Below, piece by piece: positions 14,962 through 64,000 of a stretch of DNA of 64,000 nt. Position 1 is the first letter of the stretch, and every line of letters begins with the position of its first letter. The notes beneath the pieces were generated by a model, which was given only the letters and a program-made list of their open reading frames with translations, made no database searches and was not told the DNA's origin. Where the stretch lies: assembly GCA_015063785.1 (NCBI GenBank), contig SVTM01000010.1, positions 9,728 to 73,727 of the forward strand, written 5' to 3'. This DNA is from Oscillospiraceae bacterium (GTDB taxonomy: Bacteria; Bacillota; Clostridia; Oscillospirales; CAG-382). A program made the translations under genes and the position numbers.

Positions 14962-14990
14962 TTGACAAAAGGCTTTTTGGGTGCTATAAT
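14962..14990 (+). promoter_or_regulatory. Promoter of the tRNA-Val gene
   Basis: TTGACA (14962-14967), 17 nt, TGcTATAAT (extended -10; hexamer at 14985-14990). Confidence 0.6.
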
Positions 14991-15019: not shown

Positions 15020-15095
15020 GGGAGTTTAGCTCAGCTGGGAGAGCGTCTGCCTTACAAGCAGGATGTCAGCGGTTCGATCCCGTTAACTCCCACCA
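15020..15095 (+). tRNA. tRNA-Val (anticodon TAC), CCA encoded
   Basis: Acceptor stem gggagtt/aactccc, D-loop agctcagctgggagagc, anticodon loop cTTACAa, T-arm ggttcgatcc, and 3' a-cca. Confidence 0.9.
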
Positions 15096-15103
15096 AAACA
15101 AAA

Positions 15104-15136
15104 GCACTTGCAATTGCAGGTGCTTTTTGTTTTTTG
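15104..15136. terminator. Bidirectional terminator (tRNA-Val and the convergent Cys-rich gene)
   Basis: Hairpin gcacttgc-aatt-gcaggtgc with T-runs on both strands. Confidence 0.6.
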
Positions 15137-15141
15137 TTTTT

Positions 15142-16368
15142 CTATTTTCCCGATGCAAAGGAGACCTTTGGCGAGTCTGCTGTGCTTCTTGCGCCGCTTG
15201 TCTGCGCAGGTTCCTCACAGCACACAGTGTTGGGACAAGGGGGAAGCGGCAGACAGTTTTCGCCGCCTGTGTCAGAATCAGTGCAACTGCAGGTGGGAAA
15301 GCAGCTGCAGTTCAGGTTTCCGTCACAGCAACCGCCTGCGGTGCTGTCACCCGAAACGCAGCTTGAGCATCCGCAGTTTCCGCCGCAATTGCCGCATGTG
15401 TTGCCGCACGAGGAACCTTTGCAAAGCTTCTTTATGCAGTTGAAAAGCTTGCACAGTTCTTCCACGTCGCAGTCGTTTCCGGTTGAATCTCCCGATACCG
15501 AACTGTCAGGGCAAAGATTAGAGTTGTTGGATGAAACCCCGCAGGTTGTGCAGCCGCATGCGGTATCGCATCTTTTTCCACAGCTTTCGTCAGTGCAATC
15601 GCTGTCGTAGGGGCTGTCGGGAATGGGAATGATCTCGCCGCAAATCGTGCCGTTTGAAATAAAAGTGCAGATGGGCGCCACATATGCGTGAAAACTGTTT
15701 TTGGTGAAAAAGGCATAAAGATATCCGCCGTAGCAGAAAAAGGATCTGATCCTGTAACCGTAAGGCAGGCGTTGCACTTTTACAGATCCCGTCGAAAGCA
15801 ATGTGGCACGGATGTAGGTTTGTGCCGATTTCGTGCTTTCAAGCCCTTCATAAAGTATGCCGTTATTTTCTCCGATTGCAGTATATACGTTGTTGCGCCC
15901 AGCGCTTGCAAGATTTGCAATCAGCCGTCCGTTGCTGTCGGATGCGTATGCATTAGTGGAGTTTGCAACTGCTAAAAGACAACTATTTCCTTCGCAATCG
16001 CCGGAGGGGCCGACAAAAATATTTTCCTGCCTTGCTCCGCAGGTGCCTGCCGTACAGGTACAGCTGCACGAACATGGCGAAAAATCGGGCTCAACAAAGC
16101 CGATTTGCGAAAAACATTTGTTTAAAATATATATTCTGCTACAGTTTTCAGCCGTGGCATAAAATCTACCCTGACGGCAATAGTGAAGCCCTGTGTATCT
16201 TCGCGGAAGCTTGAAAACACAGATTATTCTGCCGCAGACGTCAAGTTTGTAAACCGTCTTTCTGTCGGGCTGCAGTGCATAAAGGTATTCTCCGTCACTT
16301 GTCACCGAGCTTATCTTCAGGCCGCAGGGTGATGGAATTGCAAGAAAAGACGAGCCTTGAACGTTCAA
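15142..16368 (-). CDS. Cysteine-rich protein of unknown function (408 aa)
   Basis: TTG start 6 nt after GGAGAG. By my count 43 Cys, 27 of them in the last 154 residues. No signal peptide. Confidence 0.7.
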   Translation of the reverse strand: MNVQGSSFLAIPSPCGLKISSVTSDGEYLYALQPDRKTVYKLDVCGRIICVFKLPRRYTGLHYCRQGRFYATAENCSRIYILNKCFSQIGFVEPDFSPCSCSCTCTAGTCGARQENIFVGPSGDCEGNSCLLAVANSTNAYASDSNGRLIANLASAGRNNVYTAIGENNGILYEGLESTKSAQTYIRATLLSTGSVKVQRLPYGYRIRSFFCYGGYLYAFFTKNSFHAYVAPICTFISNGTICGEIIPIPDSPYDSDCTDESCGKRCDTACGCTTCGVSSNNSNLCPDSSVSGDSTGNDCDVEELCKLFNCIKKLCKGSSCGNTCGNCGGNCGCSSCVSGDSTAGGCCDGNLNCSCFPTCSCTDSDTGGENCLPLPPCPNTVCCEEPAQTSGARSTADSPKVSFASGK

Positions 16369-16476
16369 TATTATCTCTCCTCATGATGAATGTCGTTTGA
16401 TGCAGTATATGCAAATGTGCGTCTTTGTGACAAGGTTCAATACAGGGTAAGATGCTGTAAAAAAGCAAAATATCTA

Positions 16477-16546: not shown

Positions 16547-18259
16547 GTGAAAATGGCAAAAAAGAATCTTGCTGAAAACTACCCTTACGACGAAGTGAGG
16601 CCCCTTTCTGATTTCAAGCAGATGCTTGATGACAACGCCGAAAGACTCGGCAACAAGCCCGCTTTCAAATTCAAAGAAGACGGCGAAGTAAAAGAAGTAT
16701 CCTACACAGCTTTCAAAACCGAAACCGATTCTTTCGGAACAGCTCTTTGCTCACTTGGTGTTGCAAGGAGTCACATTGCTATCGTCTGCGAAAACTGCTA
16801 TAAGTTTATCGTTTCGTACCTCACCGTTCTCAAGAGCGAGGGCGTTTTCGTACCGATCGATAAGGAACTTCCCGCAAATGAGATCGCAAACATCATCATC
16901 AATTCCGATTCTGAAGTGGTTATCTATTCCAAAAAATACGAAGAAAAGGTTCGCTCTGTTTCGGGCATGCTTCAGAACGTAAAGTATTTCATCGCACTTG
17001 ACGATGAAGAAAATTCCGACGACGGCAAGACCTTCTCTTACAAGGAGCTTATGAAGGCAGGCTACGAAGCTCTTCAAAACGGCGACCGCGCTTTCCTTGA
17101 AATGGCTCCCAAGCATGAAGACCTTAAGCTTCTCGTTTACACATCCGGCACAACCGGCACTGCAAAGGGCGTTATGCTCTCTTTGCACAATCTCGTTTCG
17201 TGTGTTTACTACGGCCTTATGATCGCCAACACCCACGACGTTGCTCTTTCGGTGCTTCCTTATCACCACACATACGAATCTGTCTGCAGCATTCTCGTCA
17301 ACCTCCACAACGGTTCGACTATCTGCATCAACGAAAGCATCCGTACAGTAAGTGCCAACATGAAGCTTTATAAGCCCCAGATCATCATGCTCGTTCCTCT
17401 TTTTGTTGAATCTATCTACAAGAAGATCTGGAGCGAAATCGAAAACAAGGGCAAGACAAAGATTTTCAAAAAGCTTATGAAGACCAGCAACGCTCTTCTT
17501 AAGGTCGGCATCGATATGAGAAAGACTTTCTTCAAGTCTATCCACGACGTTTTCGGCGGCGATATCAAAAAGATCGTTTGCGGTGGCGCTCCTGTCAGAC
17601 AGGAACTCGGCGAATTTTTCGAGACCTGCGGCATCACTCTTACCAACGGCTACGGCATCACAGAGTGTTCGCCTCTTGTATCTGTAAACCGCGACTACTT
17701 CTACAATTTTGCATCTGCAGGCGTTGCGCTTCCTTGCGTTGAGCTTCGCATCGACAATCCCAATGAGGACGGCGAGGGCGAGATCTGTGTAAAGGGCGAC
17801 ACTGTTATGATGGGCTATTACAAGATGCCCGAGCTTACCGCCGAGGTGCTTGAACCCGACGGATGGTTCCACACAGGTGACTACGGAAGAATCGACGAAG
17901 TAAAGCGCCTTTACATCACAGGCCGCAAGAAGAACCTTATCGTTCTCCGTAACGGAAAGAACATCTATCCCGAAGAGATCGAGGATTATATCATGAACCT
18001 TCCTCTTGTCGGCGAAGTAATCGTTTCTGCCGCAAAGAACGACAACGGCGAAGAAGTTGGCCTTTGCGCCGAGATCCTTCCCGATGAAAAGCAGGTTGGC
18101 GGCATGACAGACGAAGAAATCTATGACAAGATCAAGCAGTCTGTCACAGAGCTCAACGACAAGCTTCCCCAGTACAAGCACGTTCACAACGTCGTTATCA
18201 GAAAGGAAGCTTTTGACAAGACCACCACAGGTAAGATCAAGAGAAACTACAACAAGTAA
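16547..18259 (+). CDS. Long-chain acyl-CoA synthetase (AMP-forming ligase family)
   Basis: The AMP-binding motif YTSGTTGTAKGV, plus GYGITE and TGDYG blocks. The track start is GTG 16547; ATG 16553 is the likelier start. Confidence 0.85.
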   Translation: MKMAKKNLAENYPYDEVRPLSDFKQMLDDNAERLGNKPAFKFKEDGEVKEVSYTAFKTETDSFGTALCSLGVARSHIAIVCENCYKFIVSYLTVLKSEGVFVPIDKELPANEIANIIINSDSEVVIYSKKYEEKVRSVSGMLQNVKYFIALDDEENSDDGKTFSYKELMKAGYEALQNGDRAFLEMAPKHEDLKLLVYTSGTTGTAKGVMLSLHNLVSCVYYGLMIANTHDVALSVLPYHHTYESVCSILVNLHNGSTICINESIRTVSANMKLYKPQIIMLVPLFVESIYKKIWSEIENKGKTKIFKKLMKTSNALLKVGIDMRKTFFKSIHDVFGGDIKKIVCGGAPVRQELGEFFETCGITLTNGYGITECSPLVSVNRDYFYNFASAGVALPCVELRIDNPNEDGEGEICVKGDTVMMGYYKMPELTAEVLEPDGWFHTGDYGRIDEVKRLYITGRKKNLIVLRNGKNIYPEEIEDYIMNLPLVGEVIVSAAKNDNGEEVGLCAEILPDEKQVGGMTDEEIYDKIKQSVTELNDKLPQYKHVHNVVIRKEAFDKTTTGKIKRNYNK

Positions 18260-18403: not shown

Positions 18404-19051
18404 ATGACAAACAATATAGCAAAAAAACTTGCGGAAAAATCAACTTTTTGCCACAACAGAGTGTCAAAATACATGAATTGCGAGGAGTTCAGCACCATCC
18501 GCGGCGAGCTTTGCGAAAGTGTTGGCTCTGTCTGTGAGATCCATTCGGTCAAGGATGTAATCCTTCGCGGAGCGGGCGAAAAAATCAAAGCAAGCCCGAA
18601 TATGCTAAACGAAAAATACATTCTTCGCTGGACCTGCGACGACAAGGACGACGTCGTTCTGATCAAAGAATGCACCAAGGGTAGCAAGGTCAAGGCGATT
18701 ACCGAAAAGATAAATTACGAAACGGCAGCGCGTATAATCGACCGCAGCACAAAATGGTTGTGTACCTCGCTTTCGCCGTTGATAAGAGAACTCGGTGTGA
18801 AGATGACGACAGAGCGCCTTCGCCCCGATTCTGTCATGAGCTTTGAAAGAGAAAGCTTTCTCATCGAAAACAGATTAAGGATTACCGCCGATCACGGCAT
18901 CGTTATGTGCGATTATGACGAAAAAACGGGTATCGATCAGCATTCCCGTCTTGTCGAGCCTGTTGACAACAGCGTTTGCCTTTTACAGATCAACTACGAC
19001 AGGGTGATCCCCGAGCACATATCGTCGCTTATTGGTATCAAAGCAAATTAA
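18404..19051 (+). CDS. VTC/CYTH-like domain protein (polyphosphate-polymerase-domain family), tentative
   Basis: Pattern ...RPDSVMSFERESFLIENRLRITADHGI...VCLLQINYDRVIPEHISSLI resembles bacterial VTC-domain proteins. By eye only. Confidence 0.4.
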   Translation: MTNNIAKKLAEKSTFCHNRVSKYMNCEEFSTIRGELCESVGSVCEIHSVKDVILRGAGEKIKASPNMLNEKYILRWTCDDKDDVVLIKECTKGSKVKAITEKINYETAARIIDRSTKWLCTSLSPLIRELGVKMTTERLRPDSVMSFERESFLIENRLRITADHGIVMCDYDEKTGIDQHSRLVEPVDNSVCLLQINYDRVIPEHISSLIGIKAN

Positions 19052-24746: not shown

Positions 24747-25850
24747 ATGATCAAGGCAGCAATAATCGGCTTTGCACACATGCACGTAAACGAAGTGGCA
24801 CTTTACATTTCCGAACAGCCGGATACAGAGCTTGTGGCGGTTGCTGATGCACCCACGGGCGTCGAGCAGATCGCACCCTTGCGCTACACTCCCGCTTGGA
24901 ACAAGCAGAACGTCTGCGAAAACTATTGCTCTAACTATTACGACAGCTACACAGAAATGCTTGACAAGGAAAAGCCCGAAATGGTATATATCCTCACCGA
25001 AAACTGCAAAAAGCCCGAAGTTGTCGAAGAATGTGCAAAAAGACATATAAACGTTTGTATCGAAAAGCCCATTGCCGTAAGCTTTGAAGAAGCACAGCGC
25101 ATCGAAAAGGCGGTTAAAGAATCGGGCATTACTGCCGTTGTCAACTGGCCTGTCGTATGGCGCCCCTACATCCACAAGATGAAGAAAGCTCTTGATGAAA
25201 AGATCGTCGGCGATCCCATCAAGCTCCGCTATATCAACGGCCACACAGGCCCCCTCGGCAAGGGTGCCAAGCACAGAGGTGTTTCTGCCAAGGCAGAAGA
25301 AATGACCGACGAGCAAAGAGCAAAGACCTGGTGGCACAATGACGTTTATGGCGGCGGTGTTTTCCTTGATATCTGCTGCTATGGCTGCTTCTTCTCAAAG
25401 TGGTTTATGGGCGAGGGCGAAAAGAGCGTTCTTTCCTACGGCGCAAACCTTAATACTCCCTATGGCGATACCGAAGACAACTTTGCAGCCATCGTTAAGT
25501 ATGACGGCAAAATGTCTGTTATCGAAGGCACCTGGACAACACCCCGTGCCGTTATTCCTTCGGGTCCCATGGTGCTCTGTACAGGTGGTGTCATCAACTG
25601 CACAGGCGGCGCCGAAAACGCTCCCGACGTTGAATGCTATGATATCTACGGTAACCTCGTTGAAATGCCTGCTCTTGATGAGCTCGGTGATAAGTATAAG
25701 AATATGCCCTGCCATTATGCAAATCACATAAAGACAGGCGAACCCATTCATGAAATGCTTTCTCTTGATGCCAATATGCGCGTTATGGCGATTCTTGACG
25801 CAGCAATCAAGAGCTCGCGCGGCGGTTCGGAGGCGAAGATCCTTGACTGA
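24747..25850 (+). CDS. Gfo/Idh/MocA-family NAD(P)-dependent oxidoreductase
   Basis: N-terminal MIKAAIIGFAHMH Rossmann start and an EKP motif (CIEKPIA). Confidence 0.8.
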   Translation: MIKAAIIGFAHMHVNEVALYISEQPDTELVAVADAPTGVEQIAPLRYTPAWNKQNVCENYCSNYYDSYTEMLDKEKPEMVYILTENCKKPEVVEECAKRHINVCIEKPIAVSFEEAQRIEKAVKESGITAVVNWPVVWRPYIHKMKKALDEKIVGDPIKLRYINGHTGPLGKGAKHRGVSAKAEEMTDEQRAKTWWHNDVYGGGVFLDICCYGCFFSKWFMGEGEKSVLSYGANLNTPYGDTEDNFAAIVKYDGKMSVIEGTWTTPRAVIPSGPMVLCTGGVINCTGGAENAPDVECYDIYGNLVEMPALDELGDKYKNMPCHYANHIKTGEPIHEMLSLDANMRVMAILDAAIKSSRGGSEAKILD

Positions 25851-26616
25851 TGCAATAGTTGCCGATATCCAGCGTGCATCCACCCACGACGGGCCGGGTA
25901 TTCGCACCACGGTGTTTTTCAAAGGTTGTACGCTTTCGTGTAAGTGGTGTCACAATCCCGAATGCATCGATCCAAATCCCCAGATACTTTTCTATCCCGA
26001 AAAATGCATCGGTTGCAAAATGTGCGATAAGGGTTGCTTCTCGGGAGCGCGCGTTGTCTGCGGCAAAAGCATGACCGCATCGCAGATCGCGGCAGAGGTT
26101 GCACAAGACATGGCATATTATGGCACCGAGGGCGGAGTCACCTTTTCGGGCGGCGAGCCTCTGATGCAAAAAGAAGCCTTGTCCGATGCCATTGATGAAT
26201 GTAAAAAGCTCGGGATAAAATGCGCCGTCGAAACCTCGCTTATCTACTACGATGAACAGATATTCAAAAAGCTCGATCTCGTCATGGCAGATCTTAAGAT
26301 CTGGAACAGCGAAACGCACAAAAAATACACGGGCGTCGGAAACGAAATAATAATCGAGCATTTCAAAAAGCTCGATACTCTCGGTGTTCCGATAATTGCC
26401 CGAACTCCCGTCATTCCCGAGATCGAACAGGGGATAGACAAGATTTCGGAGTTTATGAAAACTCTTAAAAACGTAATTTGTTATGAACTTCTGCCCTATC
26501 ACCCACTGGGCAATTCAAAAAGACAGGCGCTTGGAATTTTTGAACCCGACGGGTTCAGTGTGCCAAGCACAGAATACATGGAGGAGTTGAAACAATATGC
26601 CCACTGTAACAAATAA
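25843..26616 (+). CDS. Glycyl-radical enzyme activating protein (radical SAM)
   Basis: DGPGIRTTVFFKGCTLSCKWCHNPE (CxxxCxxC) plus one extra CIGCKMCDKGC cluster motif. TTG start at 25843 is 7 nt after GGAGGCG and overlaps the upstream stop by 8 nt. Confidence 0.85.
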   Translation: MTDAIVADIQRASTHDGPGIRTTVFFKGCTLSCKWCHNPECIDPNPQILFYPEKCIGCKMCDKGCFSGARVVCGKSMTASQIAAEVAQDMAYYGTEGGVTFSGGEPLMQKEALSDAIDECKKLGIKCAVETSLIYYDEQIFKKLDLVMADLKIWNSETHKKYTGVGNEIIIEHFKKLDTLGVPIIARTPVIPEIEQGIDKISEFMKTLKNVICYELLPYHPLGNSKRQALGIFEPDGFSVPSTEYMEELKQYAHCNK

Positions 26617-28831
26617 TTACACCTATGCTGACAGACTTGCCGCCATGCGCGAGACAAAGGTCCGTCACACTCTTGAAAAGAGAAAACAGAACGGCTTTAC
26701 CGACCTTGACGATTTCGGCACAGTTCCGATTTCCGAAGGTTATTCTGTTGAGCCTCTTTATAACAGCACAAACGGAAGCTTCTATGGCTATGACGGCATG
26801 TGCGAAAACTTTTGCCGTGTCATTGATGCCCACGAGCCCTATATTGATCCAAACGAAATGCTTTGTGGCAGATGGCGCGATATGCTTGTAAACTATCGTG
26901 GCGACCCTCACTATCTGCCCGATTGGCTCAAAAAGAATCCCAAAACCATGGAGCTTATGAAGTCTGCCACAAACCAGTGGAGCAAACGCTGGGACGAGCA
27001 AAGATTTCCTTATGATCACCTCAAGCCCCTGCAGGCAAAGTATAACATCGCCACAGGTATCGACGGCGACGCCCATTTTGCCTGCGATTATCGCATTGGC
27101 TTCGAACTTGGCTTTGGCGGTTTCCTTGAGAAAATTGAAAAATATCGCAAGATAAACCCCGACAAGAAGGACTTTTACGATGCAGAAGAACGCACTGTCA
27201 AGGCGATTATCCGCTTTGTCGAGCGTCATTGCGAAAAGCTTCGCGAGATGATCGCTGCCGAAGAAAACGCCGCTGTAAAAGAAAATCTTGAAACGATGCT
27301 TAAAACCTGCGAAAACATCACCTACGATGCTCCCAAGACCTTCCGCGAGGTATGTCAGTGGACAGCCTTCTTCAACTGCGCATCGCGTATTTACACTCGA
27401 GATGGCGCGGGCTTCCAGCTTGACGGACTTCTTTGGCCCTACTATCAGAACGATGTTAAGGCAGGCATTCTTGACGATGAAACCGCAAAGTTCCTCATCG
27501 CCAACCTCCTTCTCATCGATCCCCACTACTATCAGATCTCGGGTGTTGACGAGAATGATGTGGACAGAACAAACCATCTTTCCTACCTCATCCTCGAGGC
27601 TGCCGATTCCATCAACATCGCCTGCAACCTCACCGTCCGCGTTCACAAGAACTGTGACCGCGAATTCCAGCGCAAGTGTGTATATTATCTTATCAAGAAC
27701 AAGAACGCATGGCCCAGATTCTGCAACGACAAATCTCTTGCAGAGGGCTATATGAGAAACGGCGACATCGACAAAAAGACAGCTCGCGAGAGAATTGCCG
27801 TCGGATGTAACTGGATGTGCGTTCCCGGCAAGGAATTCCCGATGAACGACACCGTCAAGATCAATATTGCAAAGGTGCTTGACGAGTCGCTCAAGGATAT
27901 GAAGAACGAAGAAAATAAGAGCTCCGCACGCCTTTTCGAAATCTATGAATCCCACCTCAAAAAAGCTATTGAGGTAACTGCCGAGGGTATCAACCTCCAT
28001 ATCGACCACGCATGGGAAGTAACCCCCGAGCTTGTTATGAACCTTATGATGCACAACACAATCGAGCGCGGCGAAGATATTTCTCAGTGTGCCGAGCTTT
28101 ACACCGTCGGCATCGACGGCGCAGGTCTTGCCGTTGTTGCAGACTCGTTTGGCGCCATCGAATCGAGAATTGAGAACGAAGGGCTTGTTTCGTGGGAAAC
28201 ACTTTACGAAAACCTTGAAAACGATTTTGCTGACGAGAGAGTCCGCGCCATTATGTCGTCTGCCCCCAAGTATTGCCAGGGCGGCACAGTTTCGGACGCA
28301 TGGGCACAGAAGCTCACCGACAGTTGGGTTGCCGCCATCAAGGCGCAGAAGATGCCCGAGGGCAGAAAGCTTATTCCCGGCTGGTTCTCGTGGTCAAGAA
28401 CTATCGAGTACGGCTCCAAGGTAGGAGCCACCCCCAACGGAAGAAAGGCAACCACCCCCATATCTCACGGTGCAAACCCCAACGCGCATTTCAGAACAGA
28501 CGGTGCCCCCACGGCACAGTCCAACGGAATCGCATCTGTTCAGTGCGGCTACGGCAACACAGCCCCTCTTCAAATCGAATTTGACCCCATGGTCAAGGCG
28601 GATGACGAGGGAATCGATCTCGTACTCAACCTCATCCTTGGTCACTTCGAGCAGGGCGGAACCCTCATCAACATCAACGTCCTCGATAAGGAAAAGATCC
28701 TCAAGGCAAACGAAAATCCCGATCTTTACCCCGACCTCGTTGTCAGAGTAACAGGATTTACCGCATATTTTGCCAGCCTTTCTCCTCAGTTCAGACAGCT
28801 CGTTGTCGATAGATTCCTCACAGGTATTTGA
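26597..28831 (+). CDS. Glycyl radical enzyme (PFL-like fold), 744 aa, substrate unknown
   Basis: C-terminal VVRVTGFTAYF glycine-radical motif (Gly codon 28754-28756), ATPNGRKA block, and thiyl loop GCNWMCVPGK (27803-27832). The ATG overlaps the activase gene by 20 nt. Confidence 0.9.
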   Translation: MPTVTNNYTYADRLAAMRETKVRHTLEKRKQNGFTDLDDFGTVPISEGYSVEPLYNSTNGSFYGYDGMCENFCRVIDAHEPYIDPNEMLCGRWRDMLVNYRGDPHYLPDWLKKNPKTMELMKSATNQWSKRWDEQRFPYDHLKPLQAKYNIATGIDGDAHFACDYRIGFELGFGGFLEKIEKYRKINPDKKDFYDAEERTVKAIIRFVERHCEKLREMIAAEENAAVKENLETMLKTCENITYDAPKTFREVCQWTAFFNCASRIYTRDGAGFQLDGLLWPYYQNDVKAGILDDETAKFLIANLLLIDPHYYQISGVDENDVDRTNHLSYLILEAADSINIACNLTVRVHKNCDREFQRKCVYYLIKNKNAWPRFCNDKSLAEGYMRNGDIDKKTARERIAVGCNWMCVPGKEFPMNDTVKINIAKVLDESLKDMKNEENKSSARLFEIYESHLKKAIEVTAEGINLHIDHAWEVTPELVMNLMMHNTIERGEDISQCAELYTVGIDGAGLAVVADSFGAIESRIENEGLVSWETLYENLENDFADERVRAIMSSAPKYCQGGTVSDAWAQKLTDSWVAAIKAQKMPEGRKLIPGWFSWSRTIEYGSKVGATPNGRKATTPISHGANPNAHFRTDGAPTAQSNGIASVQCGYGNTAPLQIEFDPMVKADDEGIDLVLNLILGHFEQGGTLININVLDKEKILKANENPDLYPDLVVRVTGFTAYFASLSPQFRQLVVDRFLTGI

Positions 28832-28846
28832 TCAGATATCATAAAA

Positions 28847-28872
28847 AGAGAACCCTCGGGTTCTCTTTTTTG
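28847..28872 (+). terminator. Intrinsic terminator after the GRE gene
   Basis: agagaaccc-tc-gggttctct followed by a T-run. Confidence 0.7.
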
Positions 28873-28892
28873 TCTGTACCCCAACTTGTTAT

Positions 28893-29054
28893 GAAAGTTT
28901 TTTGATAAAACTTTTTTACAAAAAAGTTTTCGGTTTCAAAAGGCGGAGCCTTTGTCGCTGTCAGCAGACAGCGAAATATCTGTTGCGTCTGCAAAGCGCA
29001 GGAAGGGTGAATTGCACGTAGTGCAAGAGGGAAACCCTCGCCGGGGGTTTCCCT
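28893..29054. other. Highly structured non-coding stretch (series of inverted repeats) between two terminators
   Basis: AT-rich palindrome aaaactttttt-ac-aaaaaagtttt, then hairpins tcgctgtc/gacagcga, ttgcac/gtgcaa, and gggaaaccc/ggggtttccc. No ORF. Confidence 0.3.
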
Positions 29055-29067
29055 GATTTAGTTAACA

Positions 29068-29095
29068 TAAAAACGAGAACCCTCGCAGGTTCTCG
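29068..29095 (-). terminator. Intrinsic terminator after the second activase gene
   Basis: On the minus strand: cgagaacc-tgcgag-ggttctcg followed by TTTTT. Confidence 0.65.
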
Positions 29096-29116
29096 CTTTG
29101 TACTTTATAGTTTCTT

Positions 29117-29950
29117 TTATCTGACAAACAGCTTTTTGTATTCGTCAATAATCGCCTTGTCGGGCACCTCAAATTCTGTGTATGCCATATCAAGCGCATC
29201 ATATTTGTGCTCGCCCATTTTGTGATAGGGCAGAAGATCAACCGATGTGTATCTGATGTCTTTAAGAAATTCCGCTATCATGCCCATTTCTTTTTTGTCG
29301 TCGTTCACACCGTGGATAACGGGAATGCGGATGATAATGTCCTTGTCGGTGGTGTCGGATATCTTTTTCAGATTTTCAAGAATAAGCTTGTTCGAAACGC
29401 CGGTATATTCCTTGTGCTTTTGCTCGTCAAAGCACTTTACATCGTAAAGAAACAGGTCGGTATAGGGCATTATCTTTTCAAAATGCTCCCATGATACGCA
29501 TCCTGCCGTATCAACCGCAGTATGTATTCCGTTTGCTTTGCACAGCTTCAAGATTTCGCAAAGAAAATCCGCCTGCAACATACATTCTCCACCCGAAAAA
29601 GTTACGCCACCGTTCGAGGTTTCGTAAAAAGTTTTGTCTTTTATAACTTCTTTCAGAACTTCTTCGGGGGTATATTCTTTTCCGCACAATTTTCGTGCAT
29701 CGTTCGGACAAAGAATCTCGCATTTTCCGCAAAATTCGCAAGAAGCAAGATGATGCGGACATACTGAAGCACATTTTCCACATCCCGTGCATTTGTTTTT
29801 GTATATCATCATCTGCTTTTCAAAATTCTGACTTTCGGGATTGTGGCACCATTTGCATTTCAGATTGCATCCTTTGAAGAATACTGTGGTTCGGATGCCG
29901 GGACCGTCAACAAAAGAGTTTCTTTGAATATCAAAAATAACAGCTGTCAT
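29117..29950 (-). CDS. Second glycyl-radical enzyme activating protein (two ferredoxin-like cluster motifs)
   Basis: DGPGIRTTVFFKGCNLKCKWCHNPE plus CTGCGKCASVCP and CEFCGKCEILCP. Confidence 0.85.
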   Translation of the reverse strand: MTAVIFDIQRNSFVDGPGIRTTVFFKGCNLKCKWCHNPESQNFEKQMMIYKNKCTGCGKCASVCPHHLASCEFCGKCEILCPNDARKLCGKEYTPEEVLKEVIKDKTFYETSNGGVTFSGGECMLQADFLCEILKLCKANGIHTAVDTAGCVSWEHFEKIMPYTDLFLYDVKCFDEQKHKEYTGVSNKLILENLKKISDTTDKDIIIRIPVIHGVNDDKKEMGMIAEFLKDIRYTSVDLLPYHKMGEHKYDALDMAYTEFEVPDKAIIDEYKKLFVR

Positions 29951-57465: not shown

Positions 57466-60400
57466 TTACTTAATGGTGATCTTTATTGCGTTTCCTTTGC
57501 CGTAAGCGTTTGCGGATACAACGTACTGAGGAATAACAACGTAATCGCCGTTTTCATCTGTCATCAAACTGCCGTCTTCGTTCTGGGCAACGATTTCTGT
57601 GTACATATGGTTGTGCCAGTGTCCGCAGAATACGCCCTTAACAACGTCGGGGTTGCGTACGATGAGGTTGTATACCTTCATGGTGTCAGCATAGCTGTGA
57701 GCAGGGCTTCCTGCGAAGGTCTTGGTCATATCGCAAGGCATTCCGTATGTGTCACCGGGCTCATAGAACCAGCTGACTGCAGTTTCGTTGGGGTTCTGTG
57801 TGCTGATGGGATTGTGCTCGAAGATAAGGATCGGAATACCCTTTTCACGAGCTTTTTCGATGTCAGCAGCAAAAGGAACAGCCTGTTTGTCGCCCCAGTA
57901 TGCGTCTCTCTGGTTGTCGAGAACCACTATCATAACCTTTTCGGTGCCTTCGTCATTGGTGAGGATTTCAGAGTGATAGTAAATATCGTTTGTCTTCCAC
58001 ATGCTCTGAAGTACCTGATAGGTATGATCAAGGCTGTACTTGTAGCTCAGATCGTTCATATCGGGCTGGCAAAGCTCCGCAGGTTCGTGGTTACCGAGAG
58101 CCATAACAACCTTGTTGCTGCGGTCGATGATGGTCTTTGTCATAACTTCCGCGCATCCCCACGAGAGATAGTCCATAACGTCACCTGTGATGACTGTCTT
58201 GTCAAAGAAGCTTGCATATTCCATTGCTCTGTTGATGTTGGGAACAGACGAGCCGTCTCTCAGCCAGCTTCTGCCGCGGTATGTCGAAAGGGTGTTTGTC
58301 TCGCCAATCTCCATATCCTTCTGGTTGATGTAGTTAAGATGAGTGTCGGCAAAGTGTACGATCTCAACTTCGTCTCCGCCGATACCTGTGTCGATCTCAA
58401 CTTCTCTTACCTTGAAACCGTTTGCAAGCTGATACATTGCGTGGTTGGGATCCTTGTCTTCGGTTGTGGGATAACCTGTAAGAAGGGTCTTTTTGTCATA
58501 GTTTTCTGCCATGTACGCTTCCTTGCGGTCTACTTCAACGTATTCCTTGATGCCTTCAAAGGTTTCCGCCGAAGCTTCGCCTGCATTAAGAGCTGCAAGG
58601 GCAATTCTGTAAAGGTTTGTCTGATAGTAGTCGGTGTAAAGTACCTGTTCAAGACCGTTGTAGTCTTTGTAAACTATATATCCCTTTACCGAGTAGAATC
58701 TGTAATACTTGTCTTCTGTGATGTTCGTGATACAAAGAGTGTACTGAACAGAGTCGTCTGTTTCCTTGTAGATCTTTTCGCCTACGACTTTTGCAGGAGT
58801 ATAGCCGTTGTTGGACTTGGGAGTGAATACAAGTCTTGTTTCTGAATCCCATTTCCATTCAGCAACCTGAGGCTGGTCGATAAACATATCACGGCCCCAT
58901 GTGGCGTCGGTGGGAAGCACGATGGTACCAAATTCCGAAACATCGGGGAGGGCATCGAAGAAGTTGTTCTTCTTTTCAACCACAAATCTCAGACCCTGAA
59001 CACCTGTTGTTCTGATCTGCGCACCGATGATTGCAAAGTCGCGTGCCGCATTGTAATCAACATACTGTGCAACAAGAACGTCTCCGGGCTTGCCTTCAAA
59101 TGTGGCGTCACAAGTTGTGCCATCTTCATACGTCCAGCCAAGGAAGAGTTTGTCCTGAGGTTCATTGTGATGGATAGTTGCAAGATCAATGGTGCATTCG
59201 TTGTAAACGCGGATCTTTTCGCCGCTGTTTGTGTAGTAAAGCATATCAGTAAATTCAACAGTGTACTGTCCCGAGCTTACTGTGATAAATCCGTCTTCTG
59301 ATGCAAACTGTGCACCGTTTGCCTTGTTTGTGGCAACTGCGGTCTTTGTTCCGTTCACTTTGAATGTGCCGGGAGTTTCGGTTATTTCGAGGTAAGAGTC
59401 TTCCTCTTCTGCAACCGAAAGAACGTATACTCCGTTTGCGGCGGTAATTCCATCGTCAAAGTTTGTTGTGCATCCGTTGTTGAGAACCATTGTAAATGTA
59501 TCCTTAAATTCTGCGTATTTTGAAGAGCTTTCTGCAGATGTTGTTGCAATAACAGAACCCACCGAACCGCTGTTTACGGTGATGGTAACAGGGCCTGTAT
59601 AGTCAACACCCATCTGTGTATCAAGCCAGCCGTTCGAATTGAAGCTTAAGGTTGCAATGTTTGCGCCGTCAATAAGAATATCTGCGCTGTCAACAGTGCC
59701 GCGTGTGTAGCCCCAGAAGTGACCGACTTCAACCGACGGGAAGTTGCCGCTCAAGAAGGAAGCCTTGACGGGACCGTCAAAGGTTCTGAAGTCGCCGAGC
59801 CTCAATCTGAACTTGGAATCGACGGTAAGGCCTTTTCCGAAGTTGAGTTCGTTTATGCCTGCGCACAAAGCCTTGCCGCCTGCCGATGTTGACTGGTCAA
59901 GCTTGATGTTTTCGATGGTGAGAGGGCCGTTGACTCTTGCACAGTCGTCGTTGATGTCAAATACGGCCTCTCCCGAATCATCGCCTGTAAGAATGATGTG
60001 AGCAGTGTGGGCAGGGAAGCTTTCCTGATCGCCAAAACCATATGTTCCGATGATGGCAACTTTCTTTGTTGTGCAGTCAGACGCAGATGCAAGAGCAAAC
60101 GCTTTGTTGATGCTCTTTACGGGATCAAAGATCGAACCGGTATTTTCATCGTCACCGCTCTGCTGATCAAGGTAGATAACAACGGTGTCATCATAAGGCT
60201 CCCATGCGGAGTAGAAGTACAACTCGGATTCACCCTCGGGAATTTCAAAGGTGGTGCCGCCGTCGTAATGAGTTGTGGAACCATCCATGGTTTCAAGCTC
60301 CCAACCTGCGAAATATTCTTCTACGCGGTTGTTGAGAACAGGAAGATGAACGACGTATCCAACGTAGTGTGCGCCTGTTGCGTGCTCATTGTCGAAATAG

Positions 60401-63400
60401 ATGTCGACCTTCACGTCTTCAAGTTCGCTTTCGTGGAACGATTCAACGGTGTATGTGCCTTCGGGAAGGGTGAGAGCGGATTCGTACGAGAAGTAAACAG
60501 CACCCGTTTCTTCGTTAACTGCTTTTGCAACGATATCATCGCCCTTTACATAGTAAGTACCTGTTTTGCCGGAGGGCGCAAGGAAGAGTTCGTCGCCCTT
60601 AACCTTGATGTTCCAGATGCCACCCGATATTCCAACGTTTGCAGGAAGGGGCATATCAAAGATGGAGTTGTCTTCGTTTGCCACGATCTCAAAGCCGTTG
60701 CCGATGGTCACAGAACCGCCTGTTGTATCCATCTGGCGAACTGTGCCGCCGTTCATAAACAGCGAAAGTCCGTCTGCGAAGGAAGAAATGTTAGAGCCCC
60801 AGTAGATACCGGTGTTGATATCGGGATCTGCAAGGTCAACTGTTACGTGGTTTGTATATGCTGCCGAGCCCGAGCCTGCAAAGTGCACGCCGTATTGGCC
60901 TTCGGTGTCATAGGGAGAGTTGATGGTGAGAACACCGCCGAGTCCTTCGGCACCGCTGAGCATAAATTTGGGATGGTTCGAAACAAGTTCGCCCTTGTAA
61001 GCACCTTGGTTGGAATGCTTGTCGGTCTTCAGGTTGTAGAATACGCAATCATTAAAGGTTATGTCATAACCGTTGATAAAGAATTCTCTGTCCCAAAGTC
61101 TTGTGTTGATAAAGTTGATGTTGTTAAATGTTGCATCGCCGTGGAAGGTGATGTTTGTGTCCTGACCGTAAATTGGCATAAACATGATGTGTGTGTTTTT
61201 GCCTGTCAGTTCATAGTCGTATGCCTTGAAGTTCAGCTGACATTTCCAACCTGCAGTGTCGCCGTAACCGTTGCGCCATGTTGTTGCTCTTGTGTATACA
61301 TCTTTGTTGTAGAAGCTTACGCCGATAACACTGTTGCCAAACTTGTCGTACTTGTAAGGCTCGTCGCAAGCGTCCATGATAAATACCGTAACTTCATCGT
61401 CAGCATCATAGCCTGCAGCGTTGATAACACTGATAACCTCTGCAACAGATCCGACAGGGGAGTTGGGCGAAAGACCGTCGCCTGTACCGCCGTTCATAAC
61501 GAAGTATGCGGGTTCGCCGTTGCCTTCGTATTCAATGATTGCCGAAAGAACGCCGTCAACCGAGCGGTCCCAGCCGCCAAGCTTGTAAGCATCGGGAATA
61601 ACGGGTTCTTTTGCGTTTGCGATGATGGCGTCAACATCTGCCGCGGTGTATACGGTGTATACGCCGGGTGTAAGAGAAAGAGAATCTTCGCCATAATAGA
61701 TCTTTCTGCCGTCTGCCGACTGAACGTATGCCATACCGTCACATTCAACAGCAAATACGCCCTTTTCGCTTGTCAGCGAAACTGTTACTCCGTCACCTGC
61801 CGTAATGTCATAAGTGGGGCAGGAAATTGCAGGAGCTGCCGGAAGAGTAGCGCCGTTGTTTCTGATAACAGAAAGAGTACCGGAAATAACAGGAGTGTTG
61901 TTGTTAGTGAATTTTTCAACTGTTGTTCCATCAAGAATAATATTCACGTCTCCCTTAAATGTCTGGGGGAAGCCTTCTTTGTTTTTGTCGATGTAGATAG
62001 CAGGAAGCGAACCGCCTGTGATCTCAAGAGTGATGCTACCGTTGGCGGTGGTTGTGATCTGGTTGCCGTCGGCATAACCGGAAATACCAAGATCTCCAAT
62101 ATAACCTGTTGCCTTGGCATCAAGTTTGATGGTGCTGTCTATATTCGAGAAGGTACCTGCCGAACGGTTGCCGCCGATATAGAAATGACCGTACCAGGGA
62201 GTGAAAACGTGACCCTTAGATGTGGGAATGTAGTAGATGTCGGTGTCCTTGAATTCAACAGAGTGGTAGTTGCAGTTGATGTCCCATGTGTAGTTGTCGC
62301 CTCTGTTGTCGATGATATTGATGTTGTCAAATATCGTAGGACCGTTTATCGAAAGATGCGAACCTGCAGGCCATGTGGATGCAAAGTGATTTGTGAAAGT
62401 AACGTAGGATTTTTCGTTTTCGTCGATACTTGTGAATCTGATGGTTGCATCGTGGGCAGGAACAGAGTTGAGGGGAAGGAAAACAGAATCAGCCGCGCTG
62501 TCCCATTTTCCGTCTGTGGGCTGGTTTGCGTGAGGAATTACCTTAACGGTAACCTCGTCGCCCTTGCCGTAAAGCGAGTTGATCGTCTTGACAAGTGCAA
62601 CAAGATCGCCGGCAGGCGCATCTTCAAATACGCCGCTTCCGGTTGCGCCGAACTGAGCGTAGAATACGGTGGGAGCTTCCGCGCTGCCGTCACCGTACTG
62701 AGCAGTGATCTTGCCCTTGCCGTCGTCGATCCATGCGGTGAACTCATTGCCGAAGATGTCGCTCGCAGGGGGTGTAACCGTTGCCTTTGCAGCCTCAAGG
62801 TCAGCTGCAGCATAAACGGTGTATTTGCCCTTGCCGACTGTAAGCTTTCCGTTTACTGAATAATAAATTGTGGTGTTGTCTTCAGATACTGCATAAGCTA
62901 TTGCATTGCCTGCATCTACAGCAAAAGTACCTGCGGTATCTGTGATGTCAAGGCTGATATCAGAGCTTCCTGCAATAACGTTGTATACGGGAGTCTCCGC
63001 ATCCTTTGCGGTTGAGGTGTAGCCCTTGATAACGGGCGATTCGGGAAGGGTTGCGCCGTAGTTCTGAACTATCTGGATCGCGCCCTGTACTACGGGTACA
63101 GATGCAGTACCAACATTGGATACGGTAACACCTTCACCAAGGATGATGTTCAGGTTTTTGCCAATGGATTCTGTTGCAGAGGCGTTAGAACCTGTAACGT
63201 AAAGGTTGGGCAGAGTTCCCGAACCGATCTCAAGAGTAACGCTTCCTGTGGTACCCTGAACTGTTATGTCATCGTTGTAACCCATAACGTTCACGTATCC
63301 GCCGATAACGTCGGCGTTGTCAAGGTAAACGTACTGGTCGAGGTCAACAGTTTTTCTGCCTCGGATCATACCCATTGCAAAGTGGGTGGACGAGGGATAG

Positions 63401-64000
63401 AAAACGTTGCAGCTTGTGTCGAGGTCGCCGAATTTAACGTTTCTGAACTCAACAGGGTAGTGGTTGAGGTAAATATCGGTACCGCCTGCGTTGGCAAATC
63501 TCATATCAACGATGTTGATATCTTCGAAAATCGAAGGACCCTTAACAACCAAATGTGTGCTGTAAGAATTCCAGCTAAGGTAACCGGTGTGTCCGATGAT
63601 AGATATAACTTCGTCGGGCTTGTAGGATGTCCACTTGATGGTTGCCTTGTGCTCGGGGGTTGCGCCCTGACCCTGGGGGTCATAACCGAGAAGAATGTTC
63701 GAGTTGATAACTTCCTTCGAAGCTTCTCCGCTGTCAATAACATAAACTGTTACGAGGTCGCCTGTGGTGTGACCATCGTTGTTGATGTTTGTGATGATAG
63801 TGGGGATTGAGCCTGCAGGAGCGTTCTCCGAACGTCCGTCACCCGAACCGCCAAACTTGACATAATAGTTCTGTGCAGACTCAACAGCAACTTCTTCTAT
63901 AATAGCTGTAAGAACACCGTCAACAGAGTCGTCCCAACCCTTGAATTCAAAGCCTTCTGCTACGTCGGGAGTAACAGCTGCTTTTATGGTGTCAAGATCT
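57466..64000 (-). CDS. Giant multi-repeat protein (more than 2170 aa in the window; N-terminus lies beyond the right edge) with a C-terminal calcineurin-like metallophosphoesterase domain
   Basis: The track ORF's M at 63552 is an internal TTG. I translated the same frame to base 64000 without a stop. There are ~400-aa repeats, and the last ~300 aa carry ADTH, GDVMD, GNHE and GHWHNH. Confidence 0.8.
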   Translation of the reverse strand, partial: DLDTIKAAVTPDVAEGFEFKGWDDSVDGVLTAIIEEVAVESAQNYYVKFGGSGDGRSENAPAGSIPTIITNINNDGHTTGDLVTVYVIDSGEASKEVINSNILLGYDPQGQGATPEHKATIKWTSYKPDEVISIIGHTGYLSWNSYSTHLVVKGPSIFEDINIVDMRFANAGGTDIYLNHYPVEFRNVKFGDLDTSCNVFYPSSTHFAMGMIRGRKTVDLDQYVYLDNADVIGGYVNVMGYNDDITVQGTTGSVTLEIGSGTLPNLYVTGSNASATESIGKNLNIILGEGVTVSNVGTASVPVVQGAIQIVQNYGATLPESPVIKGYTSTAKDAETPVYNVIAGSSDISLDITDTAGTFAVDAGNAIAYAVSEDNTTIYYSVNGKLTVGKGKYTVYAAADLEAAKATVTPPASDIFGNEFTAWIDDGKGKITAQYGDGSAEAPTVFYAQFGATGSGVFEDAPAGDLVALVKTINSLYGKGDEVTVKVIPHANQPTDGKWDSAADSVFLPLNSVPAHDATIRFTSIDENEKSYVTFTNHFASTWPAGSHLSINGPTIFDNINIIDNRGDNYTWDINCNYHSVEFKDTDIYYIPTSKGHVFTPWYGHFYIGGNRSAGTFSNIDSTIKLDAKATGYIGDLGISGYADGNQITTTANGSITLEITGGSLPAIYIDKNKEGFPQTFKGDVNIILDGTTVEKFTNNNTPVISGTLSVIRNNGATLPAAPAISCPTYDITAGDGVTVSLTSEKGVFAVECDGMAYVQSADGRKIYYGEDSLSLTPGVYTVYTAADVDAIIANAKEPVIPDAYKLGGWDRSVDGVLSAIIEYEGNGEPAYFVMNGGTGDGLSPNSPVGSVAEVISVINAAGYDADDEVTVFIMDACDEPYKYDKFGNSVIGVSFYNKDVYTRATTWRNGYGDTAGWKCQLNFKAYDYELTGKNTHIMFMPIYGQDTNITFHGDATFNNINFINTRLWDREFFINGYDITFNDCVFYNLKTDKHSNQGAYKGELVSNHPKFMLSGAEGLGGVLTINSPYDTEGQYGVHFAGSGSAAYTNHVTVDLADPDINTGIYWGSNISSFADGLSLFMNGGTVRQMDTTGGSVTIGNGFEIVANEDNSIFDMPLPANVGISGGIWNIKVKGDELFLAPSGKTGTYYVKGDDIVAKAVNEETGAVYFSYESALTLPEGTYTVESFHESELEDVKVDIYFDNEHATGAHYVGYVVHLPVLNNRVEEYFAGWELETMDGSTTHYDGGTTFEIPEGESELYFYSAWEPYDDTVVIYLDQQSGDDENTGSIFDPVKSINKAFALASASDCTTKKVAIIGTYGFGDQESFPAHTAHIILTGDDSGEAVFDINDDCARVNGPLTIENIKLDQSTSAGGKALCAGINELNFGKGLTVDSKFRLRLGDFRTFDGPVKASFLSGNFPSVEVGHFWGYTRGTVDSADILIDGANIATLSFNSNGWLDTQMGVDYTGPVTITVNSGSVGSVIATTSAESSSKYAEFKDTFTMVLNNGCTTNFDDGITAANGVYVLSVAEEEDSYLEITETPGTFKVNGTKTAVATNKANGAQFASEDGFITVSSGQYTVEFTDMLYYTNSGEKIRVYNECTIDLATIHHNEPQDKLFLGWTYEDGTTCDATFEGKPGDVLVAQYVDYNAARDFAIIGAQIRTTGVQGLRFVVEKKNNFFDALPDVSEFGTIVLPTDATWGRDMFIDQPQVAEWKWDSETRLVFTPKSNNGYTPAKVVGEKIYKETDDSVQYTLCITNITEDKYYRFYSVKGYIVYKDYNGLEQVLYTDYYQTNLYRIALAALNAGEASAETFEGIKEYVEVDRKEAYMAENYDKKTLLTGYPTTEDKDPNHAMYQLANGFKVREVEIDTGIGGDEVEIVHFADTHLNYINQKDMEIGETNTLSTYRGRSWLRDGSSVPNINRAMEYASFFDKTVITGDVMDYLSWGCAEVMTKTIIDRSNKVVMALGNHEPAELCQPDMNDLSYKYSLDHTYQVLQSMWKTNDIYYHSEILTNDEGTEKVMIVVLDNQRDAYWGDKQAVPFAADIEKAREKGIPILIFEHNPISTQNPNETAVSWFYEPGDTYGMPCDMTKTFAGSPAHSYADTMKVYNLIVRNPDVVKGVFCGHWHNHMYTEIVAQNEDGSLMTDENGDYVVIPQYVVSANAYGKGNAIKITIK

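Follow-up and report, generated by a model that had tools for sequence, protein, structure and literature searches.

A leaderless, cysteine-tailed beta-propeller protein as a candidate spore-surface component of uncultured gut Clostridia

The DNA analysed here (the window) is a stretch of 64,000 nucleotides (nt) from an Oscillospiraceae bacterium (assembly GCA_015063785.1, contig SVTM01000010.1, positions 9,728 to 73,727 of the forward strand), and the subject of this report is a reverse-strand gene within it, encoding a leaderless protein rich in cysteine (Cys) that we regard as a candidate spore-surface protein. The gene lies between a divergent AMP-binding (acyl-CoA-ligase-like) gene and a convergent tRNA-Val gene, and its features are listed in Table 1. 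TTG at position 16368 is the first start codon past the upstream stop codon; an in-frame ATG was found nowhere in the gene, and the protein contains neither an internal Met nor a Trp. Cys residues are split unevenly: the final 154 residues (15142-15606) contain 27 of them, and residues 1-254 the other 16. With 10.4-10.5% Cys (median 3%), the protein is the most Cys-rich of the window's open frames that span 200 codons or more.

A preliminary description, made from the letters alone, had given the length, start codon, Cys total, Cys distribution and Cys runs of this protein, and a recount agreed with it throughout. The ribosome-binding site (RBS) that it had named was present, and the terminator that it had assigned jointly to the gene and to tRNA-Val (15020-15095, + strand) corresponds to a palindromic hairpin between the stop codon and the tRNA, which is likely to be a bidirectional terminator common to the two convergent genes. 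The absence of a signal peptide and of a transmembrane helix was also borne out: no signal-peptide features were found at the N-terminus, and the maximum 19-residue Kyte-Doolittle mean was 1.23. Two further identities were considered and rejected. A lipoprotein or secreted protein was discarded for want of a signal peptide and because the sequence PSPC is not a lipobox, and a precursor of a ribosomally synthesised and post-translationally modified peptide (SCIFF/ranthipeptide type) was discarded because the protein has 408 amino acids (aa) with a folded head, and no maturase gene is adjacent in any locus; the radical-SAM genes of the window (25.7 and 29.1 kb) lie on either side of a glycyl-radical enzyme gene.

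Table 1. Features of the Cys-rich gene, its product and its flanking DNA (positions in the window)
Feature	Positions	Strand	Description
Coding sequence	15142..16368	-	408 aa, TTG start, 43 Cys, monocistronic
Head, five-bladed NHL-like beta-propeller	15634..16344	-	residues ~9-245; AlphaFold2, Foldseek, hhalign
Hypervariable Cys/Gly/Ser loop PCSCSCTCTAGTCG	16024..16083	-	residues 96-115, blades 2/3; indel-rich in the family alignment (A1), pLDDT 39
Cys-rich acidic tail	15145..15606	-	residues 255-408; 27 Cys, net charge -10, mostly disordered
Cys-studded helix DCDVEELCKLFNCIKKLCK	15418..15474	-	residues 299-317; sole tail helix predicted (302-317)
CLPLPPCP motif	15232..15255	-	residues 372-379; conserved
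RBS GGAGAG	16375..16380	-	read from the sequence; 6 nt before TTG
(A/G)CAnCAAAC element	16395..16403	-	directly past the -10 box; predicted transcription start region
-10 box CATATACT	16404..16411	-	mother-cell sigma (sigma-K/sigma-E) type
-35-like box TGTCACA	16426..16432	-	family consensus tT[G/A]TCA[a/c]A; not used for anchoring
Palindromic hairpin	15100..15127	.	12-bp stem, T runs on both sides; only + strand scored in scan

A search of 5.8 billion clustered proteins returned 29 homologues (43-100% identity), all unnamed or annotated as 'hypothetical'. All came from metagenome-assembled genomes (MAGs) of gut or rumen Clostridia/Oscillospiraceae, labelled Clostridia, Eubacteriales or Oscillospiraceae and obtained from water-buffalo colon, human gut and similar sources; the DNA sequencing runs that contain the gene were faecal, sheep, goat, wildlife and other gut metagenomes. 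The family is a small one: four clusters with strong scores were all that an exhaustive hidden Markov model (HMM) search of 1.84 billion representatives clustered at 50% identity gave. No family was matched in Pfam scans (E<=10 for the window protein, E<=0.1 for all 29 members) or in NCBIfam scans of the same proteins. The Cys-rich architecture is kept in every homologue (28-69 Cys each), with tails of 12-21% Cys and a net charge of -5 to -25.

Against an orthologue of 79% identity, the ratio of non-synonymous to synonymous substitution rates (dN/dS) was 0.15 for the head and 0.18 for the tail; both halves are therefore under purifying selection and the gene is real. For expression, RNA contigs from two gut metatranscriptomes covered 15306-15554 (exact match) and 15533-15791 (one mismatch) at a depth of 2-3; this shallow coverage shows presence only, not timing, and DNA carry-over is possible. 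Scanning of metagenome contigs gave a single locus, a duplicate of locus L012, and the exact window protein had no entry in the contig index.

The start codon itself is conserved: TTG, preceded by a GGAG-type RBS, was kept in all distinct loci of the family, and in 14 of 14 it stands 6-9 nt past the RBS, a conserved weak start being unusual. Several database gene calls (P0003, P0007, P0016, P0024 and P0026) start instead at upstream ATG codons; such calls read through the promoter and the 5' untranslated region (5' UTR), as in ...CIYYSKRY..., which spans GCATATACTACAGCAAAC, and the resulting N-terminal extensions are annotation artefacts.

The first ~250 residues, previously described as rich in beta-strands, were modelled by AlphaFold2 (from the family alignment) as all-beta with a predicted local distance difference test score (pLDDT) of ~90 for residues 10-250, and the 22 strands form five four-stranded sheets; the count of five blades is a reading of the DSSP strand list, not of coordinates. 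Foldseek matched this head to NHL-type propellers (TRIM2, Brat) and to E. coli YjiK with probability 1.0, at target-normalised template modelling (TM) scores of 0.46-0.58 and 8-15% identity. In a profile search of the PDB, the family profile matched single blades of designed 'Bagel' propellers and nothing more, and none of the Pfam models NHL, SGL and Glu_cyclase_2 reached threshold for the window protein or the 29 members. In the alignment of the Cys-rich family (A1), the first ~250 residues are very strongly conserved apart from the hypervariable loop at 96-115, and the invariant polar residues of the head include D25, D35, D43, E174, R187 and N224.

Below the four family clusters, the HMM search listed leaderless proteins, 250-390 aa in length, whose match begins at residue ~10 (1e-4 to 3e-6). 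When these were aligned (A2) and compared with A1 using hhalign, a probability of 99.5% was obtained (E 5e-23, residues 1-230, 213 columns), and we conclude from this profile match that the window head is homologous to theirs. Most A2 proteins continue past the head into a Cys-rich linker and then a segment of the form ...ESIALxExALAHILNAEGEKLQK.... One of them, P0040, carries the precomputed Pfam label PF26595 (A_ENA), as do both of its neighbours, and its C-terminus matches PDB entry 9ihh ('Ex vivo spore-silk A-ENA fibers') at E 7.5e-7. In its AlphaFold2 model, P0040 has a beta head at residues 1-226 and a helical hairpin at 274-344, with a disordered Cys linker (235-273) between them; its head matched the same NHL propellers as the window head, the best superposition being with five-bladed glutaminyl cyclases (TM 0.65-0.70). 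Searching with the A2 profile gave 265 proteins. Among the best 120 of these, PF26595 was present in 119 and all the named proteins belong to Clostridia (Oscillospiraceae, Defluviitaleaceae, Lachnospiraceae, Clostridium, Sarcina, Acetivibrio and Pseudoflavonifractor); shorter relatives of the head occur in Anaerospora and Sporomusaceae.

A-ENA is an alpha-helical, isopeptide-cross-linked endospore appendage of B. thuringiensis, with a SigK-type site upstream of the gene and sporulation-specific expression (Sleutel et al. 2026, PMC13111695). 'Fusion' A-ENA homologues carry passenger domains, proposed as fibre decorations, which InterProScan assigned to collagen/C1q, SdrD_B/OmcB and 4Fe-4S types; a propeller was never named among them (PMC13111695). 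The combination of propeller, Cys-rich linker and A-ENA hairpin apparently defines a large and so far undescribed class, to which more than 250 A-ENA fusions belong. In one locus (L020:3884-7526), the gene of a propeller-A-ENA fusion is clustered with those of a 92-aa single-domain A-ENA and a 690-aa SdrD_B/CLIPPER-A-ENA fusion.

With these fusions the window protein shares the homologous head, the leaderless state, a disordered Cys-rich segment past the head, a CATATAAT-type promoter and a range confined to Clostridia. The C-termini differ: the fusions end in an alpha-helical A-ENA hairpin with an NAEGEK motif, whereas the window protein lacks A-ENA and has instead its 154-aa tail, in which 27 Cys, a single short helix and CLPLPPCP are found. 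The alpha-helical hairpin of A-ENA subunits with its ...ALAHILNAEGEK... sequence (PF26595; PDB 9ihh) is not found in the window protein, and the Cys-rich family, with its four clusters, is far smaller than the fusion class.

Past residue 252 the AlphaFold2 model has a pLDDT below 50 save for one helix at 302-317, and the tail is mostly disordered. It is acidic, with few aromatic residues and with CxC, CxxC and CC motifs. Its alignment is built of conserved islands (CxxESC, VSSNQT..C...VSGDST, the helix DCDVDELCRLFNCIKKLCK, CC..G.L.C.CYP.C.C, CLPLPPCP and LKVSF) parted by Cys/Gly/Asn filler of variable length. Ten tail Cys are invariant (C258, C263, C273, C300, C306, C311, C316, C360, C362 and C372); E304 is invariant in the helix region together with C300, C306, C311 and C316, and within CLPLPPCP the residues C372, L373 and P374 are invariant while L375, P376 and C378 are kept in at least 90% of members. 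A degenerate A-ENA hidden in the tail was considered and rejected: the tail profile (A3) and the A-ENA profile (A4) showed no relation in hhalign (probability 0.1%), and the family profile A1 gave no match to PDB 9ihh at E<=10, where the C-terminus of P0040 served as the positive control. A database search with the tail profile, of poor sensitivity, gave no match beyond its own family. Metallothionein and Fe-S families were not matched in Pfam or NCBIfam.

The upstream regions of 14 distinct loci, encoding proteins down to 43% identity, were compared after anchoring on the -10 8-mer. Each region contains exactly one CATATA[A/C]T, located 33-38 nt (mostly 34-36 nt) before the TTG (the printed distances of 28 for L010 and 31 for L001 stop at an earlier TTG), and the shared layout is T[G/A]TCA-N15-CATATA[A/C]T, ~35 nt upstream of TTG. 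In the -35-like box, T is kept in 14 of 14 loci, and C and A in 13 of 14. Mean pairwise identity over the 14 loci was 0.28 far upstream, 0.79 in the -35-like box, 0.31 in the spacer, 0.61 in the element downstream of the -10 box and 0.39 in the remaining 5' UTR; these elements are kept amid randomised DNA, and the intergenic DNA outside them is therefore saturated with change. The background frequency of the 8-mer was 9e-5 per position (560 kb of these loci), and the full promoter pattern was matched once in the 64-kb window, where 0.01 matches were expected. In an exact-pattern scan of the window and loci only the Cys-rich family carried the promoter, and a relaxed scan added the CLIPPER gene of locus L004, VTC genes and a few others. 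The downstream (A/G)CAnCAAAC element is not known to fit the consensus of a regulator such as SpoIIID or GerE.

For C. difficile, the listed sigma-K promoters include -10 boxes CATATACT (CD0564), CATATAAT (sigK P2) and CATAGTAT (cdeC), the spacer from AC to CATA is 15-19 nt with a mode of 17, and transcription starts ~6 nt past the 8-mer (Saujet et al. 2013, Table S7, PMC3789822). The element at 16404-16411, previously described as a near match to mother-cell sigma -10 boxes, is conserved in all 14 loci and is identical in the window to a mapped C. difficile sigma-K box. At the -35 position GTCACA is found in the window, GTCAAA in many relatives and ATCATA in one, which is partly sigma-K-like. 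CATA-type boxes, some with canonical AC spacing, also precede the genes of distant relatives and of one neighbour: TATCATT-N14-CATATAAT in P0040 (with the same layout as in the window), GTAACG-N15-CATATAAT in P0043 of Anaerospora, CATAGTAT upstream of the 92-aa A-ENA gene, and GTGACA-N15-CATATACT (AC-to-CATA spacer of 16 nt, canonical and sigma-K-like) upstream of the L004 CLIPPER gene. The promoter would probably be read by sigma-K and possibly by sigma-E. The tRNA-Val gene has a perfect extended sigma-70 promoter (14962-14990, + strand; TTGACA-17-TATAAT after TG), which provides an internal housekeeping reference.

Several known spore proteins resemble the window protein in general design. 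CdeC and CdeM of C. difficile and CsxA and CsxC of C. sporogenes are leaderless with roughly 10% Cys, as is the window protein; CdeC, of about 405 aa, is of similar size, and the sigma-K promoter of cdeC contains a -10 box of CATA type like that of the window gene. CotY, CotZ and ExsY of the Bacillus crust and exosporium basal layer are likewise Cys-rich and leaderless. They are made in the mother cell and form disulfide-stabilised assemblies. Leaderless Cys-rich proteins have been described as a recurring building principle of spore envelopes, with a 'cooperative disulphide' principle for CsxA, CdeC, ExsY and CotY, and CdeC, CsxA and CsxC are SPOCS/DUF3794-domain proteins (bioRxiv 10.64898/2026.09.03.749163). 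Covalent cross-linking of the outer spore layers is the role proposed for the CdeC/CsxA type, as it is for the window protein. In the CdeC/CsxA type the Cys are spread through a folded lattice unit, whereas in the window protein they sit in a disordered tail. The fold of the window head is also common to NHL and five-bladed propellers (TRIM2/Brat, YjiK, and plant and bacterial glutaminyl cyclase), which have no Cys-rich tail and no sporulation context and share 8-15% identity with it.

On balance we favour, with moderate confidence, the explanation that the product of the gene is a spore-surface protein, synthesised by the mother cell while an uncultured, Oscillospiraceae-like gut Clostridium sporulates, with a Cys-rich anchor in place of A-ENA. 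A monocistronic transcript would be produced from the conserved mother-cell-type promoter, with CATATA[A/C]T at -10, by sigma-K or possibly sigma-E, and would be translated from the conserved TTG. The lack of an export signal is what would be expected of a coat, exosporium or appendage protein, the assembly of which proceeds from the cytoplasm of the mother cell. The five-bladed propeller head would then be the displayed or interacting module, acting as a binding surface or an assembly unit, and the acidic disordered tail would be the anchor, fixing the head covalently into Cys-rich outer spore layers through disulfide bonds or metal-thiolate bridges. In the more than 250 Clostridial relatives the A-ENA hairpin would insert the same type of head into isopeptide-linked appendage fibres, and in the Cys-rich branch the Cys anchor may have replaced the A-ENA anchor. 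The parts of this scheme that name sigma-K and disulfide links are held less firmly than the whole. What the analysis shows directly is the reading frame with its composition, conservation and purifying selection, the fold of the head, its homology to the A-ENA-fusion heads and the conserved promoter motif; from these we infer the sigma factor, the timing of expression, the location on the spore, the cross-linking chemistry and the ligand of the head.

The preliminary description had already pointed to a spore coat or exosporium role by comparison with CdeC/CdeM and CotY/ExsY, while being unable to show homology to them. The role gains support, of an indirect kind, from the conserved mother-cell-type promoter, from the homology of the head to A-ENA-fusion heads and from the position of one homologue 7 kb from spoIIR, and the comparison survives as an analogy only: the family is unannotated and, as judged from sequence and predicted fold, is unrelated to the known Cys-rich spore proteins, so that the window protein may work like them without being a member of their families.

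A number of observations weigh against the spore-surface explanation. The promoter is not a canonical one: its AC-to-CATA spacer of 15 nt equals the lowest value known from C. difficile sigma-K promoters (15-19 nt), the -35 spacing is 1-2 nt below the C. difficile mode, and the -35 consensus is matched in few loci (AC, for sigma-K, in about 4-5 of 14; ATA, for sigma-E, in one). Read instead for sigma-70, the same DNA gives TTGTCA-18-TATACT, a fair promoter that agrees with the consensus at 10 of 12 positions. With CdeC, CsxA and CsxC there is no sequence relation, the SPOCS/DUF3794 domain is absent and the fold is a beta-propeller; CotY, CotZ and ExsY belong to another fold and family, in which there is no propeller, and Pfam Spore-coat_CotZ was unmatched. 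In the tail-only profile search no other head was found to carry the tail, and one extra fragment of the same family was gained, the search being insensitive, as known members went unlisted. The hosts are strict anaerobes, in which disulfides would form after release or be replaced by metal bridges. The genomic neighbours of the gene are metabolic, no sporulation gene was found among the ~50 open reading frames (ORFs) scanned in the window, all of which are metabolic, regulatory or transport genes, and no A-ENA gene was found by tblastn in the fetched loci of the Cys-rich family. The only sporulation-specific gene in the fetched loci is spoIIR (Pfam Spore_II_R, L018:2713-3345), 7 kb from the homologue P0026. 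Since the window lacks such genes, the case for sporulation of the carrier rests on this one spoIIR and the promoter.

Some of these points would suit a vegetative cytoplasmic protein, transcribed from a sigma-70-type promoter, whose tail would be a metallothionein-like metal or sulfide store, a redox buffer or an Fe-S/thiol scaffold and whose propeller would be its functional partner. Besides the 10 of 12 promoter matches, with the -35 bases T, G, C and A conserved, the metabolic neighbours (including the strictly conserved divergent acyl-CoA-ligase-like gene), the window free of sporulation genes and the low-level RNA in gut metatranscriptomes agree with such a protein, as do the CxC, CxxC and CC motifs and the acidic, aromatic-poor composition of its tail. 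However, the sigma-70 reading is made less likely by the invariant CA before TATA(C/A)T and by a spacer that is always 18 nt, both unexpected for sigma-70, and by the canonical TTGACA-17-TATAAT promoter of tRNA-Val only 1.4 kb away. Heads homologous to that of the window protein are nearly always joined to a spore-appendage domain, the filler of the tail is hypervariable in length, unlike a defined metal cluster, and metallothionein and Fe-S families were unmatched. We judge this explanation distinctly unlikely.

A variant of the spore-surface explanation places the protein not in the coat or exosporium lattice but at the tip of a filamentous spore appendage or of an extrasporal matrix, or as its decoration ('ruffle'-like adhesin), docking by its conserved helix and Cys tail onto a putative Cys-rich fibre subunit. 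Homologous heads do ride on A-ENA subunits, in a cluster with single-domain A-ENA and a CLIPPER-A-ENA fusion, and fusion proteins have been proposed as fibre decorations (PMC13111695). In L004, moreover, the Cys-rich gene adjoins and is convergent with a gene (L004:11442-12352) for a leaderless 283-aa CLIPPER/DUF11-like protein, which has the canonical AC-N16-CATATACT promoter and shares 28% identity with the CLIPPER portion of the L020 A-ENA fusion. This neighbour occurs in one locus only, however: tblastn of A-ENA genes and CLIPPER homologues against all fetched loci found them in L020 and L004 alone. No fibre subunit gene, of A-ENA or other type, was seen beside the Cys-rich gene in any of the 14 loci, and the tail is unrelated to A-ENA; the variant is regarded as unlikely. 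An enzymatic propeller (glutaminyl-cyclase-, lactonase- or SGL-like, five- or six-bladed), acting in the mother cell or on the spore with the Cys tail as a tether or as a ligand of a metal cofactor, appears highly improbable. The very strong conservation of the head, with its many invariant polar residues, would be expected of an enzyme, but self-assembly interfaces would give equally strong conservation; the superposition of the P0040 head on glutaminyl cyclases is set against Foldseek identities of only 9-15% and the absence of a sequence match to any enzyme family, Glu_cyclase_2 and SGL among them. Enzymes do occur in spore coats, CotE and CotD of C. difficile being examples.

Most gut Firmicutes spread between hosts as spores, and to our knowledge almost nothing is known of the spore surfaces of uncultured Oscillospiraceae-type lineages. 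The family supplies a candidate protein of the spore surface whose fold would be new to the 'cysteine-rich spore envelope' principle; its head domain would link this principle to the newly described A-ENA appendages, and its relatives form a propeller passenger class, with more than 250 members, as yet unrecognised by domain databases. A wider idea is offered as a tentative and somewhat doubtful extension: the propeller head may be a hitherto overlooked module for display on the spore surface, common among gut Clostridia and carried on interchangeable covalent anchors (the isopeptide-forming A-ENA hairpin, or a Cys tail with disulfide or metal-thiolate links). On this wider idea, the window protein would be the first of a third structural class of Cys-rich spore-envelope proteins, a beta-propeller beside the SPOCS and CotZ folds, and the head could mediate adhesion of the spore to host, mucus or glycan, or of spores to one another, with effects on the transmission of uncultured commensals. 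Possible uses are of the promoter as a marker of the mother-cell regulon in MAGs, and of the protein as a spore marker or handle.

The remaining observations concern the surroundings of the gene. The AMP-binding gene (window 16547-18259, + strand) is the upstream neighbour in every locus examined, the other neighbours varying, and a VTC-domain gene (window 18404-19051, + strand) is usually nearby. The VTC genes have a conserved upstream cTGTCACAtt, followed 12 nt later in the window and in L005 by CATATAAT. At 25750-29950 of the window, a glycyl-radical enzyme of 744 aa resembling pyruvate formate-lyase lies between two radical-SAM activase-like genes. The second most Cys-rich frame of the window (8.3% Cys, at ~60-62.9 kb) was rejected as a shadow of a 2028-aa ORF on the opposite strand (57466-63552, - strand), in whose antisense this spurious frame lies; the 2028-aa ORF has strong coding statistics, ~1700 N-terminal residues without a Pfam match and a C-terminal match to calcineurin-like phosphoesterases (Metallophos).

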